IMG/VR virus record: IMGVR_UViG_2663763400_000010
Direction: 5' to 3' (one strand)
Length of the DNA: 42,975 nucleotides
Source of the DNA: a virus
Lineage: Duplodnaviria > Heunggongvirae > Uroviricota > Caudoviricetes
Shown: in pieces, positions 1 to 6,625 of the stretch
How the letters are laid out: each line of letters opens with the position of its first letter
Numbering within the stretch: the stretch's first letter is position 1
Program-made: the position numbers and the translations under genes
The notes under the pieces: generated by a model
Told to the model about the DNA's origin: nothing
Database searches by the model: none
The model's input: the letters and a program-made list of their open reading frames with translations, nothing else

Positions 1-198
1 ATGGCACTGGACAGTTATGCATCTCCGAATATTATTCCGGAGCTAAGACAACCGAATGCCGCAGCAGGTAAGATCACGCTAGGGGGGCTGGACAGAATGG
101 CTGTTACGCCCAGTGTGAAGAAAAGAAGGCTAAGTATGGTAGAATTTCCATACGCACAGACCTTGTTATCCGACTATACAGCCTGGAAGGCACTATGA
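1..198 (+). CDS. hypothetical protein, probably the 3-prime end of a gene continuing left of the window
   Basis: ORF reaches coordinate 1; its stop overlaps the ATG of the next ORF (ATGA at 195-198), suggesting an operon. No recognisable motif. Confidence 0.3.
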   Translation: MALDSYASPNIIPELRQPNAAAGKITLGGLDRMAVTPSVKKRRLSMVEFPYAQTLLSDYTAWKAL

Positions 199-983
199 CA
201 AATCTACAACTGGAAGAAAGATTTAGGGCGCTTGAGAAAGATTACGATGCGCTCATTTCCACAAAATATACTGCGCAGAACGTTCTCACTCACACTATGG
301 AAACCTATGTTGATTCTGGTAAATATAAAAACTGGATCGCCAGAGTGAAAAAGTTAATAGAGGACAGCTACGGAAAAGAGTCTGATTATTACAATGACTT
401 CAATACTGTAAACAGCAGGTGGTCTTCTAATTACAATACACTGATCAAAAGTTATAAACCGTTGTTTGATGCGGCGAGAGATGATCTTGCGCACTCTGCT
501 GTCAGTACTAATACTCCTCAAGAAGGTTCGCCGCTGAGCCTCGTACTTAATATTCTTAACAGGTTTCCGACCTTTGTTCGCCAGTTAAAGAGGCGGTACA
601 ACGGCCGTGCGCCGCTTGAAGTTAATGATGAGTATGACGTACAGGATTTGATTTATGCACTGCTGACGCTTCATTTTAATGATATTAGGGCGGAAGAGTA
701 TACCCCCAGCTTTGCGGGCGCGGCCTCAAGACAGGACTTTCTTTTGAAAAAAGAGAAAATTGTGATAGAGGTGAAGAAAACCCGTGAATCTCTGGGAGCG
801 GGTAAAGTTGGTGGAGAGTTGCTTATTGATATGGCGCGCTACCGCGCTCACCAAGACTGCGATACGTTGATCTTGTTTGTATATGACCCGGATTGCTACA
901 TAAATAATCCTTTGGGCGTGAAAACCGATCTGGAATCTAAAGACGCGGAAGGAAAAGTGAAGGTTGTTATTGCGCAGTTCTGA
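195..983 (+). CDS. hypothetical protein with C-terminal PD-(D/E)xK-like nuclease signature
   Basis: 262 aa from ATG at 195, translationally coupled to upstream ORF. C-terminal half shows D...ExK spacing (SRQDFLL...IVIEVKK) typical of PD-(D/E)xK nucleases; N-terminal half looks helical. Family not recognised; lower GC than phage structural genes. Confidence 0.45.
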   Translation: MTNLQLEERFRALEKDYDALISTKYTAQNVLTHTMETYVDSGKYKNWIARVKKLIEDSYGKESDYYNDFNTVNSRWSSNYNTLIKSYKPLFDAARDDLAHSAVSTNTPQEGSPLSLVLNILNRFPTFVRQLKRRYNGRAPLEVNDEYDVQDLIYALLTLHFNDIRAEEYTPSFAGAASRQDFLLKKEKIVIEVKKTRESLGAGKVGGELLIDMARYRAHQDCDTLILFVYDPDCYINNPLGVKTDLESKDAEGKVKVVIAQF

Positions 984-1016
984 CACGCTTAAGTGTCACC
1001 TTACAGGATTAGGTTT

Positions 1017-1065
1017 GCGGCCGTGCCAGCAGGACGAGCATGAAAAAGGCCGCTGGCACGGCCGG
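1017..1065. terminator. GC-rich stem-loop between convergent genes (possible bidirectional terminator)
   Basis: GCGGCCGTGCCAGC ...21 nt... GCTGGCACGGCCGG inverted repeat between the stop at 983 and the minus-strand gene ending at 1071. Confidence 0.35.
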
Positions 1066-1070
1066 ATTTG

Positions 1071-1364
1071 TCATCTTTGCCAGGTCAAATCAAAATCTAC
1101 GTGAAAATCCGCAGGCTTAAGCTCGCAACTGCCACCACGCCCAATTAACGACGTTATGTTTACAACGTTTGAACCTGTTGAGATGGCAAGTTGAGTGTCA
1201 TCTGTAAACGTGATGATTAGCATTTCAGTCTGATGAACCTGTACTCCAGTTTTCTGAAAACCAATCTGGACAGATTTCACCGTTTTCCCAACCATTTCAC
1301 GGGCTTGATTGATAGAGTAATTAGCTTCAACTTGTAGGTCATTCCTGAACTTGGGTAGTGTCAT
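1071..1364 (-). CDS. hypothetical small protein (97 aa)
   Basis: Clean ORF with no competing frame; no recognisable motif. Confidence 0.4.
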   Translation of the reverse strand: MTLPKFRNDLQVEANYSINQAREMVGKTVKSVQIGFQKTGVQVHQTEMLIITFTDDTQLAISTGSNVVNITSLIGRGGSCELKPADFHVDFDLTWQR

Positions 1365-1574
1365 TTTACATCCTCTTTAGTGAAGTTTTCGCTATTTAAA
1401 TCAGCAGCATTCCTTTTAAATCACTGGCATGTCAGCAGTGGATAGTCTGAGTGTAACGTCCAGTGAGGGGAATAAATATTGGTCAGACTTTGCACAAAAG
1501 AGCCAACTATCGCGGGCTCTCTCTCATCATGTGCGAAAATTGACCACAATATGAAATCCAGTTCCATTCCGAAA

Positions 1575-2399
<825 letters not shown>

Positions 2400-2495
2400 T
2401 CAATTGACAACTTATAATCCCTACTAGTTAGCATTATGATTTCCAGAGTGAGGAATATAAAAATCTCTGTTTCTGGCACATAACAGCCCTTAAGA

Positions 2496-2555
2496 TCGTA
2501 GCTCGCCATCATGGGGTGTCGGGGGGCGGAGGTTCAAATCCTCTCGTGCCGACCA
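2496..2555 (+). other. 3-prime fragment of a tRNA-Pro(GGG)-like gene (anticodon loop to CCA); att-core-like junction, not an intact tRNA
   Basis: 2509-2555 reads anticodon loop CATGGGGTG (anticodon GGG), variable loop, T-arm GGAGG-TTCAAAT-CCTCT, acceptor 3-prime strand CGTGCCG, discriminator A and CCA, matching recalled enterobacterial proL. Only degenerate similarity at 2496-2508, and no 5-prime acceptor strand (CGGCACG) or D-arm upstream. Confidence 0.6.
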
Positions 2556-2568
2556 AAAATCCCTTAAG

Positions 2569-2597
2569 AACCAGCCTATTATGGCTGGTTTTTTTAT
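2569..2597 (+). terminator. Rho-independent terminator just 3-prime of the tRNA fragment
   Basis: AACCAGCC-TATTAT-GGCTGGTT hairpin followed by a run of T. Confidence 0.6.
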
Positions 2598-2735
2598 GAT
2601 TGTTTTTTATGCGGAGAAATACCGGGGAATAATTGGGGTAAAACACCTTTAGGCTATTCACTTAGCCTACCACCATCAAAATCTTTCCGAATGTATCCAT
2701 CTCTTTTTTCTTATGCAGCTAAAACGAAGTCTTGA

Positions 2736-2755
2736 TACTGTTTATTTACACAGAT
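2736..2755 (+). promoter_or_regulatory. LexA (SOS) box, perfect CTGT-N8-ACAG
   Basis: TACTGTTTATTTACACAGAT about 45 bp upstream of the dinI-like ATG. Confidence 0.55.
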
Positions 2756-2763
2756 AAGAATAA

Positions 2764-2783
2764 TACTGTCTACAAACGCAGTA
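2764..2783 (+). promoter_or_regulatory. second, weaker LexA-like box (CTGT-N8-GCAG)
   Basis: TACTGTCTACAAACGCAGTA with one mismatch to consensus, directly upstream of the dinI-like ATG. Confidence 0.4.
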
Positions 2784-2796
2784 CAAAAGAAGTGTT

Positions 2797-3044
2797 ATGC
2801 GTATTGAGATCTCCATAGCCAAAGACAAAATGACCAAATGCCAAACGGCGCTGTGGACGCGTTAAAGGAAGAATTAACCCAACACATTGGCAAGCGTTAT
2901 GACGATGTGGAGATGATCGTAAAAGCCACCAGCAACGATAGTTTTTCAGTTAGACATACTGCAGATAAAGATTGAGCTAAAACTTTCGTTCAGGAAACTC
3001 TGAATGATACCTGAGAGTCTACTGAAGAGTTGTTTGTTCACTAG
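2797..3044 (+). pseudogene. dinI-like gene, apparently disrupted (frameshift in an A-run plus two in-frame TGA codons)
   Basis: Frame A encodes [14 protein letters not shown] then stops; the +1 frame continues [71 protein letters not shown]. Together these resemble DinI (MRIEVTIAK...IDAL...LQETWES). Short enough to be missing from the ORF track. Confidence 0.5.
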
Positions 3045-3399
3045 TTAGCACGTAGGAAATCATTCAATACTCGCACTATCGGAAGTTCACCAGCCAGTCG
3101 TAGCACGTCCTTGCAAACGACGTGCCTACGGTTTCAATCACCTCTCACCATCAATTCTATCAATAATAATTAAACAGCGCCTAGACAAAATAAATAACAA
3201 CAAGTCAACAACCTCGACAGGATGCCGATGGGATGATGAAGAGATAAGAAAGAATAACCAGTAAAGCCCTAAAACGTCAGCGTTCAGACGCGTTTTTTAC
3301 TTAATCGGTAACAAATACGTTGTATCATAGCAAAATAAAATGATTGTTCTAAATCAGATTAACTCCTCACTTTTGTACAATGTCGCTTACAGGTATACC

Positions 3400-3699
3400 A
3401 TGAAATCCGAGACGCTAACTGTCCAACAACTTTTTCAAGACCGCCGACAATACTGTGTTCCATTCTATCAACGTGCCTATGTATGGACTCAGCAAGACCA
3501 GTGGTCAGCTCTACTGGAGGATATCCTAGAGAAAGTACAATCCCGGCTCTCGGGTACAAAACCAACTCCCCATTTCCTTGGTGCGGTTGTACTGGAACCT
3601 CAATCAAAAAAAGGATTATTAGGTGTAGATTCCATACATATTATTGATGGTCAGCAACGATTGACCACTCTTCAATATGTTCTGGCATCCATCCGATTA
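3400..3699 (+). pseudogene. GmrSD-family type IV restriction-like gene, N-terminal fragment (DUF262-type), truncated by IS2
   Basis: Contains FYQRAYVW and [11 protein letters not shown] (DGQQR) motifs of the DUF262/ParB-like domain. ATG at 3400 preferred over the ORF track start at 3340. The frame runs straight into the IS2 left end, where a stop is supplied by the IS. Confidence 0.65.
3695..3699. repeat. IS2 target site duplication, left copy (GATTA)
   Basis: Identical 5-bp GATTA directly abuts both IS2 ends (3695-3699 and 5031-5035). Confidence 0.8.
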
Positions 3700-3790
3700 T
3701 AGACTGGCCCCCTGAATCTCCAGACAACCAATATCACTTAAATAAGTGATAGTCTTAATACTAGTTTTTAGACTAGTCATTGGAGAACAG

Positions 3791-4156
3791 ATGATTGATG
3801 TCTTAGGGCCGGAGAAACGCAGACGGCGTACTACACAGGAAAAGATCGCTATCGTTCAGCAGAGCTTTGAACCGGGAATGACGGTCTCCCTTGTTGCCCG
3901 GCAACATGGTGTGGCAGCCAGCCAGCTATTTCTCTGGCGTAAGCAATACCAGGAGGGAAGTCTTACTGCTGTGGCTGCCGGAGAACAGGTCGTTCCTGCC
4001 TCTGAACTTGCTGCCGCCATGAAGCAGATTAAAGAACTCCAGCGTCTGCTCGGCAAAAAAACGATGGAAAATGAACTCCTTAAAGAAGCCGTTGAATATG
4101 GGCGAGCAAAAAAGTGGATAGCGCACGCGCCCTTATTGCCCGGGGATGGGGAGTAA
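3791..4156 (+). CDS. insC: IS2 transposase OrfA (InsC)
   Basis: [41 protein letters not shown]..., 121 aa, HTH transposase OrfA. ATG at 3791 rather than the upstream alternative start in the ORF track. Confidence 0.85.
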
Positions 4157-5019
4157 GCTTCGTCAGCCGTTGTCTCCGGGTGTCGCGTGCGCAGTTGCAC
4201 GTCATTCTCAGACGAGCCGATGACTGGAAGGACGGCCGCCGCAGCCGTCACACGGATGATACGGATGTGCTTCGCCGTATACACCATGTTATCGGAGAGC
4301 TACCCACATATGGTTATCGTCGGGTATGGGCGCTGCTTCGCAGACAAACAGAACTTGATGGTATGCCTGCGATCAATGCCAAACGTGTTTACCGGATCAT
4401 GCGCCAGAATGCGCTGTTGCTTGAGCGAAAACCCGCTGTACCGCCATCGAAACGGGCACATACCGGCAGAGTGGCTGTGAAAGAAAGTAATCAGCGATGG
4501 TGCTCTGACGGGTTTGAGTTCCGCTGTGATAACGGAGAAAAACTGCGGGTCACGTTCGCGCTGGACTGCTGTGACCGTGAGGCACTGCACTGGGCGGTCA
4601 CAACGGGTGGCTTCGACAGTGAAACAGTACAGGACGTCATGCTGGGAGCAGTGGAACGCCGCTTTGGCAGCGAGCTTCCGGCGTCTCCAGTGGAGTGGCT
4701 GACGGATAATGGTTCATGCTACCGGGCGAATGAAACACGTCAGTTCGCCAGGATGTTGGGACTTGAACCGAAGAACACGGCAGTGCGGAGTCCGGAGAGT
4801 AACGGAATAGCAGAGAGCTTCGTGAAAACGATAAAGCGTGACTACATAAGTATCATGCCCAAACCAGACGGGTTAACGGCAGCAAAGAACCTTGCAGAGG
4901 CGTTCGAGCATTATAACGAATGGCATCCGCATAGTGCGCTGGGTTATCGCTCGCCACGGGAATATCTGCGGCAGTGGGCCAGTGATGGGTTAAGTGATAA
5001 CAGGTGTCTGGAAATATAG
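4114..5019 (+). CDS. insD: IS2 transposase OrfB (InsD), DDE catalytic domain; made as OrfAB fusion by -1 frameshift
   Basis: 301-aa ORF overlapping insC in the -1 frame; A-AAA-AAG heptamer at about 4108-4114. Confidence 0.85.
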
Positions 5020-5030
5020 GGGCAAATCCA

Positions 5031-5035
5031 GATTA
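5031..5035. repeat. IS2 target site duplication, right copy (GATTA)
   Basis: See left copy. Confidence 0.8.
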
Positions 5036-6625
5036 GCATTACGTGCTACGGATCTTTCCAGCTTAGAGGCTCTCATTTCGCCTTGCCTGAAAAACTCAAA
5101 CGAAGACACAATGCGAAATAAAGAAGTAGAACGCTTCAAACTGTGGCCAACTTTTCGGGATCAAACTCATTTTATTCAAAGTTTTAATGTTGAAAATATT
5201 GACGATCTCCGGGACGTATTCTCTGATAGTTTCACGCAGCATGGTACGTTGCGTAAGCATTTTAATCACCCGCCATCACTAGAAGCATTATGTTTTTTTA
5301 CTGAAGCCTTTATAAAATGGATTAAAATAGAAAACCACTCACCACAAGAAAATGCTGTAGCTCTAATTGAGGCTGTCTTAACAGATCTGAAACTGGTAAG
5401 CATATTTCTCGAAGCTGAAGATGATGCCCAAATAATTTTTGAAACATTAAATGGGCGAGGGGCGGAACTTCATGCTACGGATCTTATTCGCAACTATATC
5501 TTTATGTGCGCTGAGCATGAAAATATTAATGCTATTGAATTATATGAAAATGAGTGGAAGAGCTTTGAAGATAAATACTGGTCGGAAAAACAACGCCGTG
5601 GACGTATTAATAAACCACGCATGGAGTGGCTAGTACATGCGACATTGCAATCAGAAAGGCAACGTGAAATTGATCTGTCTCGCCTTTACAATGAGTATCG
5701 TGATTATGTAAGTAAGGACTTGTCTTCACAACGAGCAGATCTGCAAGTAAAGCGCCTCAAACAATATGCATCACAATATAAAGAATTGGTTGATGGTTTT
5801 GGCACAACCCCCATCTCACACTTTGGATATCGCATCGCAGACTATGATGTGACGACACTTTATCCGCTTGCTTTGTTCATTTCGATAGCTAACATCGCTG
5901 ATGATGAGAAAGCAGCCATGTATAATGATCTTGTCTCCTACGTAGTACGAAGAGCCGTATGTGGCCTGACGCCAAAGAATTACAACAATGTATTTATGAA
6001 TGTATTGCGGCACTTGGCTAAAACGGAAATTTCCAGTGTTGAGTTACGTAATATCCTCAATAACTTAAATGGCGAAGCCTCACGTTGGCCTGGTGACTCA
6101 GAATTTCTCAACGCTTGCATCAATGCTCCACTTTATCCTGGCAGGCTCGACGCACCGAAAATGCGCTCAATGTTAACGGAACTTGAAAGAGAACTTTGTC
6201 GCCAAGTAAAGACAGAAAAGCCTGATGTTCCAAATCTTTCTAATCTCGATATCGATCATCTTATGCCTCAAAGTTGGTATTCCTGTTGGCCTCTCGAAAA
6301 TGGTCGTATGGTGACAAATTCAGATGCTACGGTATTGAACCAAATTGTTCTGTCTGGAACCGATCTTACCCCTGAACAGCTACTGGTAAGGAAACGGCAA
6401 CAAGCGATATCTACTTTGGGAAATCTAACTTTGCTTAACCTTAGCGTAAACCGTTCTGTTCAGAATGCTGTATTTCTGAAAAAACGTGATGCTCTCATCG
6501 TCCACACCAATCTACGACTGAACATTCCACTTATAGTTAAGGATAAATGGGATGAGGATGAAATCCTGGAGCGGGGTAAAAAGTTGGGGGAAATTGCATT
6601 GAAAGTATGGCCAAAACACGATTAA
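5036..6625 (+). pseudogene. GmrSD-family type IV restriction-like gene, C-terminal fragment (DUF1524/HNH-like), downstream of IS2
   Basis: Same frame as the N-terminal fragment once IS2 and one GATTA copy are removed (...ASIRL | ALRATDLSS...). C-terminal region has LDIDHLMPQSW ... NLTLLNLSVNRS, the His-Me finger-like motif of DUF1524. The ORF track start at 4994 lies inside IS2 and is an artefact. Confidence 0.65.

Follow-up and report, generated by a model that had tools for sequence, protein, structure and literature searches.

The nuclease bAgaN of the Argonaute-associated BPAN system is a Mn2+-dependent DNase that acts on both single- and double-stranded DNA (PMC10620215). For EcbAgaN, the C-terminal domain alone is toxic whilst the full-length protein forms an autoinhibited dimer, and engagement of its N-terminal helical domain by a complex of prokaryotic Argonaute (pAgo) and target converts it to an active octamer that degrades DNA non-specifically (PMC13535254). 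Domain PF18742 also appears in a list of alternative Detocs effector domains (bioRxiv 10.1101/2023.01.24.525353), and Shedu is autoinhibited until a DNA cue appears (PMC12904381). Here we analysed the left end of a 42,975-nucleotide stretch of DNA (IMG/VR virus record IMGVR_UViG_2663763400_000010; hereafter the window), which carries a gene for a 262-amino-acid (aa) nuclease, WP_000183405.1. Judged by its sequence, the product is a member of the PF18742 domain family. We propose, at what we consider about an even chance of being right, that it is a stand-alone, single-protein immune DNase held off by a private N-terminal domain until an infection cue appears.

The original prediction described an ATG-started open reading frame (ORF) for a protein with a helical N-terminal half and a C-terminal D...ExK arrangement (SRQDFLL...IVIEVKK), which it could not assign to a known family. 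The ORF is present and corresponds to a RefSeq entry annotated either as 'hypothetical' or as 'PD-(D/E)XK nuclease domain-containing protein'. A family assignment proved straightforward, as Pfam PF18742 ('REase_DpnII-MboI') matched at E 9.5e-49, far above cut-off (165.3 bits versus 27), over profile positions 3-149 of 150. The helical half was seen in an AlphaFold2 model (mean predicted local distance difference test score, pLDDT, 83.8), in which aa 102-112 form a flexible, low-confidence linker between the two domains (Table 1). The predicted motif is also there, and corresponds to an active site of D181, E192 and K194, supporting assignment as a PD-(D/E)xK nuclease. This catalytic motif lies on a restriction-endonuclease-like alpha/beta fold, as belongs to a PF18742 member, and the modelled nuclease domain is BamHI/BglII-like in its fold. 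Foldseek searches against the Protein Data Bank (PDB) and against viral structures returned weak, generic PD-(D/E)xK matches only. The three active-site residues were invariant in 41 close homologues. They were likewise invariant in 84/84 homologues from many phyla, together with R134, R138, D145, E146, Y147, D148, Q150, D151, R165, E167, E168, D212, Y216 and D231, although the loci were retrieved with peptide patterns that included NDEYDVQD, KKEKIVIE and YDPDCYIN, so that invariance inside those stretches is partly built in. An exhaustive HMMER search with the N-terminal domain recovered 15 clusters, all of the same family and all of at most 268 aa, and therefore gave no support for this domain as a shared sensor module; a word-indexed search returned fragments only. 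By sequence comparison the N-terminal domain is private to this nuclease family.

Gene structure, domain family, fold, invariant motif, the want of an obligate partner, mobility and defence-rich surroundings are shown directly by the present analysis. From the analogy with bAgaN and Detocs, combined with a stand-alone, defence-island and plasmid-borne distribution, we infer DNase activity, autoinhibition, a trigger and a defence phenotype for this protein. The N-terminal domain would keep the DNase domain inactive in uninfected cells. An infection-associated cue would then activate the nuclease, probably through a change in oligomeric state (oligomerisation), and the active enzyme would degrade DNA, either that of the invader or the cell's own in an abortive infection. 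Phages or plasmids may be the targets of such a defence. In some Enterobacterales, including the strain of the window, a 97-aa protein may act as an optional companion.

Table 1. Coordinates of features at the left end of the window
Feature	Position	Strand	Basis or remark
Upstream ORF 1-198	1..198	+	65-codon ORF, judged non-gene; covers nuclease promoter and leader
Extended -10-like motif TGGTAGAAT	137..145	+	Probable nuclease-gene promoter, inferred from conservation
Shine-Dalgarno-like GGAAGG	185..190	+	4 nt before ATG 195; sequence reading
262-aa 'helical + REase' nuclease gene, WP_000183405.1	195..983	+	RefSeq, Pfam, purifying selection
N-terminal helical domain, aa 1-101	195..497	+	Helices 3-21, 41-59, 64-70 and 79-101; beta-hairpin 25-38
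C-terminal PD-(D/E)xK domain, aa 113-262	531..980	+	Pfam PF18742 at aa 117-261
Catalytic codons	D181 735-737, E192 768-770, K194 774-776	+	
GC-rich 13-bp hairpin	1018..1064	strand-neutral	Between two convergent stop codons; likely bidirectional terminator
97-aa gene, WP_000174562.1	1071..1364	-	Convergent with nuclease gene
PD-T4-3	1575-2348	-	Almost full-length match, PADLOC E 8.6e-137; Pfam LEM-3-like GIY-YIG

Position 1 of the window lies 385 bp right of the ssrA (transfer-messenger RNA, tmRNA) gene in UTI89-like Escherichia coli. The gene order in UTI89 is smpB, ssrA, a spacer of ~580 bp and then the nuclease gene. Window positions 1-1400 were 100 % identical to 25 chromosomes among the matches listed, including UTI89, S88, APEC O1 and the type strain, and were present at ≥99 % identity in 113 of 5426 complete E. 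coli genomes. This context bears directly on the earlier claim that the nuclease gene is the second of two co-translated genes, the first of which runs off the window. The ATGA overlap on which that claim drew does exist, with the stop codon TGA 196-198 of ORF 1-198 overlapping ATG 195-197. The upstream ORF, though, does not continue beyond the window: UTI89 and S88, whose DNA is identical here, have an in-frame TAG 8 codons before position 1, and the first start codon after it is ATG 1-3, so ORF 1-198 is complete and has at most 65 codons. Its product had no match in Pfam, PADLOC, NCBIfam or PHROGs, and the ORF is absent from the RefSeq/PGAP annotation. The frame is interrupted by stops or frameshifts in loci where the nuclease is 87-89 % identical (Pantoea L007 and L009, Enterobacter L008; L numbers denote our locus set). 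On the IncX1 plasmid L003, a 5-nt difference sets the remnant of ORF 1-198 in frame with the nuclease ORF, which explains the 281-291 aa database versions of the nuclease; locus L011 likewise shows a different frame relation. Over the 63 nt before the nuclease start, variable columns fell 12/12/9 by codon position, with no third-position excess, so the leader evolves as non-coding DNA. Differences between the nuclease ORF and that of L007 fell 24/12/84, indicative of strong purifying selection. On these comparisons, ORF 1-198 is not a gene but an unconserved, spurious reading frame. Some database gene calls (276-291 aa) also stretch the nuclease N-terminus into the promoter and leader region.

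Among the enterobacterial loci, ~110 nt of DNA upstream of the nuclease gene are conserved at the DNA level only. They include an invariant CATGGTAGAAT, that is TG(G/T)TAGAAT, an extended -10-like motif placed 44-49 nt 5' of the start codon in 9/10 loci, and the DNA farther 5' of it is unrelated among them. A two-hexamer promoter scan did not list the motif at 137-145 because it has no good -35. The sequence GGA(A/T/C)(G/T)G is kept at the Shine-Dalgarno position in homologous loci, and the nuclease gene is thus probably expressed alone, from a promoter inside ORF 1-198. Downstream, the fold of 975-1085 reached -46 kcal/mol (z = -3.6), with terminator-like matches on both strands. An inverted repeat, TGGACA-N12-TGTCCA, lies ~50 nt 5' of the -10 motif (window 87-116; also upstream of L003, L006 and L011) and is partly conserved: both L006 and L011 have a perfect copy, and that of the window is degenerate (CTGGACA...CGCCCAG). 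A regulator of the nuclease gene could use the repeat as its operator. We also considered the 20-codon tail of ORF 1-198 (MVEF...KAL, then stop) as a leader peptide. It shows no third-position bias, has no conserved Shine-Dalgarno sequence and has its ATG inside the -10 motif, and it was rejected, if not firmly.

With this evidence in hand, a translationally coupled two-gene operon, of toxin-antitoxin or sensor-effector type and with ORF 1-198 as the 3' end of a larger co-translated gene, appears very improbable. Besides the stop/start overlap itself, this reading can draw on the fact that the last 20 upstream codons are open, with the stop overlapping the start codon, in 6/10 enterobacterial loci (7 if the identical L007 and L009 are counted separately). 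It is set against a complete ORF of at most 65 aa, broken in close relatives, changed in its frame relation in L003 and L011, non-coding in its substitution pattern and devoid of homologues, family or RefSeq annotation. The internal ATG is moreover embedded in the -10 motif and preceded by no conserved Shine-Dalgarno sequence. The proposed cassette was therefore not upheld: the upstream ORF is unconserved and holds the nuclease -10 motif, the nuclease gene has its own Shine-Dalgarno sequence, and no upstream partner recurs.

That last point comes from a partner search in which every ORF within 5 kb was clustered across 85 loci. No partner gene recurred, whether co-directional or large; beyond tyrosine recombinases (8 loci) and an Abi-family gene (4 plasmid loci), nothing was repeated. 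Close co-directional neighbours were mutually unrelated and comprised a Type I S subunit, SNF2-PLD, a UvrD fragment, NAD-ligase, a reverse transcriptase, BrxL, an MmeI-type enzyme, LeuA, RhuM and DUF2971. The close upstream ORFs of distant homologues were considered as a hidden conserved partner or methylase and dismissed, as they encode unrelated proteins (LeuA, DNA ligase, BrxL, MmeI, Type I S subunit, SNF2-PLD and reverse transcriptase). Defence genes were the commonest neighbours. Those that support a defence role are PD-T4-3 and a DUF262 gene in the window, Abi-family genes on plasmids and, elsewhere, the Type I S subunit, SNF2-PLD, BrxL, MmeI, reverse transcriptase, RhuM and DUF2971 neighbours, together with a Peptidase_U49 gene beside an integrase gene. 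PD-T4-3 is a published single-gene GIY-YIG defence system against T-even phages (bioRxiv 10.1101/2024.12.20.629700).

The nuclease gene is mobile accessory cargo on islands, prophage ends, integrative and conjugative elements (ICEs) and conjugative plasmids. We recovered 2483 homologues at E <= 1e-3, with the close ones all in Enterobacterales. A locus scan restricted to one genome per species yielded 80 loci spanning Proteobacteria, Bacteroidota, Cyanobacteria, Actinomycetes, Clostridia, Saccharibacteria and Archaea, in which the nuclease domain was 50-60 % identical and most proteins had 245-275 aa. Within E. coli, any allele was present in 267/5426 complete genomes (~5 %), at 155 chromosomal and 166 plasmid places, and the allele of the window in ~2 % of complete genomes. 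Approximately 180 plasmid records carried a full-length copy, and 301 of the 367 matching records were conjugative (IncX1, IncX4, IncF). Several copies lay at prophage ends. The low GC content and the position at the edge of an integrated element that had been pointed out earlier were both borne out: the gene has 43.2 % GC against 48-53 % in flanking core genes, and it lies as accessory cargo at an island edge among defence genes, with neither a housekeeping homologue nor core-genome synteny. Many family members carry the name 'malate dehydrogenase' in NCBI and UniRef; no result obtained here supports it, the only Pfam match being a nuclease domain, and the name looks like a propagated annotation error.

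The 97-aa gene was the one neighbour with a repeated, if partial, association. Its family comprised 20 clusters, found only in Enterobacterales, and the protein had no Pfam match. In 8/9 species contexts the gene was located by or near a PF18742 gene or its remnant. The two genes are tail-to-tail and 94-107 nt apart in E. coli, Serratia marcescens, Enterobacter and Kosakonia, and the S. marcescens pair forms a 2-kb islet between LysR and LacI genes. In Morganella they are tail-to-tail with the 97-aa gene degraded. In Erwinia, where the nuclease is only 57 % identical, they are head-to-head and 211 nt apart. The 97-aa gene lies 2.4 kb from the nuclease gene in Citrobacter, adjoins a 25-residue remnant of the nuclease gene in Salmonella, and is found alone on a Pantoea ICE. 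The nuclease gene conversely occurs without it in Pantoea, Pectobacterium, Cronobacter, all plasmids examined and every non-enterobacterial locus. A role for the 97-aa gene as part of PD-T4-3 was discarded, given that PD-T4-3 was absent from every non-E. coli locus with the 97-aa gene. This pattern of presence and absence indicates that the 97-aa gene is a facultative companion, neither an obligate antitoxin nor part of PD-T4-3. We assign the protein no fold or function, as its AlphaFold2 model is unreliable (pLDDT 54). In Kosakonia cowanii (L103/L104, 4395-8294), the pair adjoins an Rhs toxin locus (PAAR, RHS repeats, RES domain) with an Imm11 immunity gene.

Several points weigh against an immune DNase. 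The ideas of autoinhibition and oligomerisation come from bAgaN, and the N-terminal domains of the two proteins are not homologous. The N-terminal domain was never found fused to other effectors in the HMMER search, and no sensing function could be assigned to it. PADLOC 2.0 contains no model for the full-length family, and the Serratia and Cronobacter homologues are flanked by housekeeping genes, further defence genes being absent from their vicinity. Searches by RefSeq accession and locus tag found no paper on the nuclease, and literature retrieved with 'DpnII-MboI' and 'PF18742' merely mentions the domain. The invariance of active-site residues carries the retrieval bias described above. 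Finally, the closest folds are those of the sequence-specific type II enzymes BamHI, BglII and BstYI, which leaves room for a restriction-like mode of action. Together with the family name, these fold matches would favour a restriction-type endonuclease acting on its own, which would recognise a sequence or a modification state and cut incoming DNA at a defined site, for example one containing GATC as in the BamHI/BglII/BstYI/DpnII group, with the host shielded by a methylase encoded elsewhere (such as Dam in Enterobacterales). We regard this as unlikely in view of the phyletic spread of the nuclease family and of the missing linked methylase: no methyltransferase lies next to the nuclease gene in the window and none recurs in the 85 loci, the methylase-related neighbours belonging to unrelated systems, each at one locus (Type I S subunit in L017, MmeI in L079).

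The frequency of the gene on plasmids also raises the prospect that it serves the mobile element itself, through maintenance, the processing or resolving of DNA, or competition with rival elements. In the maintenance region of IncX1 and IncX4 plasmids it comes straight after the resolvase/integrase gene, and repE is its neighbour on an IncF plasmid, whilst the recurrence of tyrosine recombinases, the plasmid and conjugative counts given above and a phage protein family of the same size that matches the nuclease domain (phrog_29450) all point the same way. Yet the gene keeps no constant arrangement with recombinase, relaxase or replication genes, and in Serratia and Cronobacter it survives by itself as a tiny islet between housekeeping genes, away from any element functions. 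It had no match in 50,697 deposited phage genomes, and its commonest neighbours, as noted, are defence genes. Service to the element consequently receives only a small share of our belief, and a share just as small is kept for functions outside the four readings weighed here. The immune DNase may extend to a fuller picture, which we put forward tentatively and hold to be rather doubtful as a whole. The gene would represent an unnamed single-gene immune system found across bacteria and archaea and on IncX/IncF resistance plasmids, whose N-terminal domain senses the cue directly with no Argonaute or phosphorelay partner, and to which some Enterobacterales have added a dedicated 97-aa modulator (an inhibitor, co-sensor or trigger adaptor). 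The 97-aa gene stays linked to the nuclease gene despite a change of orientation, from convergent in E. coli to divergent in Erwinia.

The att remnant reported earlier was confirmed, with positions 2498-2597 being 86-88 % identical to the 3' part of tRNA-Pro loci. This segment comprises the 3' tRNA-Pro part (ending CGACCA, 2550-2555) and the downstream terminator, and genuine tRNA-Pro loci are present in nearly all E. coli genomes. By its sequence it looks like the att remnant left by a former integration at tRNA-Pro, now lying within an ssrA-linked island. ARAGORN found no intact tRNA or tmRNA in the window and did not call the tRNA-Pro fragment, Rfam gave no match in 1-3400 at E <= 1, and no second copy of the ssrA 3' end was found in the window at <=3 mismatches. 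In S88, a P2-like prophage (L002 1-7620; CI, integrase, Dam-type methylase and replication endonuclease) lies between ssrA and the nuclease island, and ~45 nt of the ssrA 3' end recur as a duplicate (L002 7571-7615) immediately to the left of the sequence preceding the window. The prophage and the duplicate indicate that the ssrA site has been used repeatedly and that the nuclease island can be displaced from ssrA.

The start of PD-T4-3 was placed at GTG 2381 in the mechanical ORF list and at 2348 by RefSeq and the profile match. A DinI-like pseudogene (~2797-3014; L001 17797-18014), with a frameshift and an internal stop according to RefSeq, separates the tRNA-Pro fragment from the DUF262 gene. 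The DUF262 gene, which neighbours the nuclease gene in the window island, is intact in UTI89 (630 aa, L001 18400-20289) and split in the window (3340-3702 and 4994-6625). The interruption is an inserted IS3-family element (~3746-5019), which has a pair of overlapping transposase ORFs and which we take to resemble IS2, and since this insertion splits the gene, the DUF262 defence gene is inactivated in the window strain. The nuclease homologues of IncX1, IncX4 and related plasmids have an Abi-family gene (~320 aa) within 90-530 nt, in varying orientation (L003 5881-6855, L004 3206-4162, L006 5915-6823 and L010), and the two may form a small plasmid defence module near the resolvase/partition region. 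In Morganella morganii (L090-L092, 5210-9879), a homologue of 89 % identity occupies the end of a prophage next to icd. It has a KTI12/AAA_33-like kinase gene on one side and, on the other, a gene that weakly matches Peptidase_U49 (Lit-like), after which comes the integrase gene. Here too, a prophage end carries a defence-type 'moron' cluster.

If the immune reading is correct, a compact single-gene nuclease system of ~0.8 kb would be added to the defence repertoire, and the PF18742 effector, known as an output module of Argonaute (BPAN) and Detocs systems, would work alone with a minimal regulatory domain, providing a simple model for how such nucleases are held off and switched on. Its reach would extend to ~5 % of complete E. 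coli genomes, widespread IncX/IncF conjugative plasmids and many phyla. It is plausibly a widespread candidate defence gene, one of many such candidates.

Set against described systems, the nuclease is closest in sequence to bAgaN. EcbAgaN (PDB 23wq; PMC10620215, PMC13535254) was the only sequence relative with a solved structure, matching aa 109-231 (phmmer E 2e-4), and three 'Aga_Helical-REase' (Argonaute-associated) models of PADLOC matched the C-terminal part only (best E 1e-26), so that the nuclease domains are homologous. The EcbAgaN motif D298/E309/V310/K311 ('D-EVK'; PMC13535254) has the same D-x10-E-V-K spacing as D181-E192-V193-K194. The likeness ends there, as the match covers only aa 100-258 (profile positions 212-372; chain residues 220-351) and the N-terminal, Ago-binding domain of bAgaN has no detectable homology to the protein of the window, which has 262 aa compared with 390. 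BPAN/bAgaN loci co-encode a long-B pAgo, whereas the neighbours of the window gene are ssrA, the 97-aa gene and PD-T4-3. With no pAgo gene and a non-homologous N-terminal domain, the nuclease is not a BPAN/bAgaN member, and because it is encoded alone its activator cannot be a co-encoded pAgo. The restriction-endonuclease variants of Detocs share PF18742, but there a three-gene phosphorelay acts through the domain, whilst here it is joined only to a short private helical domain and has no conserved partner genes. The type II enzymes BamHI, BglII and BstYI, to which the family name adds DpnII and MboI, are 9-13 % identical in sequence to the window nuclease and do not have the extra N-terminal helical domain. 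The window gene has no adjacent methyltransferase and sequence specificity is unsupported; with no cognate methylase, it is not a canonical type II restriction-modification enzyme. Shedu (SduA) is built on the same principle, as one protein chain whose N-terminal regulatory or sensor domain varies and whose C-terminal part is a PD-(D/E)xK nuclease. Its nuclease sub-family differs, with no match to DUF4263 or the Shedu model at E <= 1 in Pfam or PADLOC, and for want of DUF4263 the protein is not Shedu. By analogy, the way the protein works would most resemble that of bAgaN or Shedu, in which a regulatory N-terminal domain governs a PD-(D/E)xK effector.

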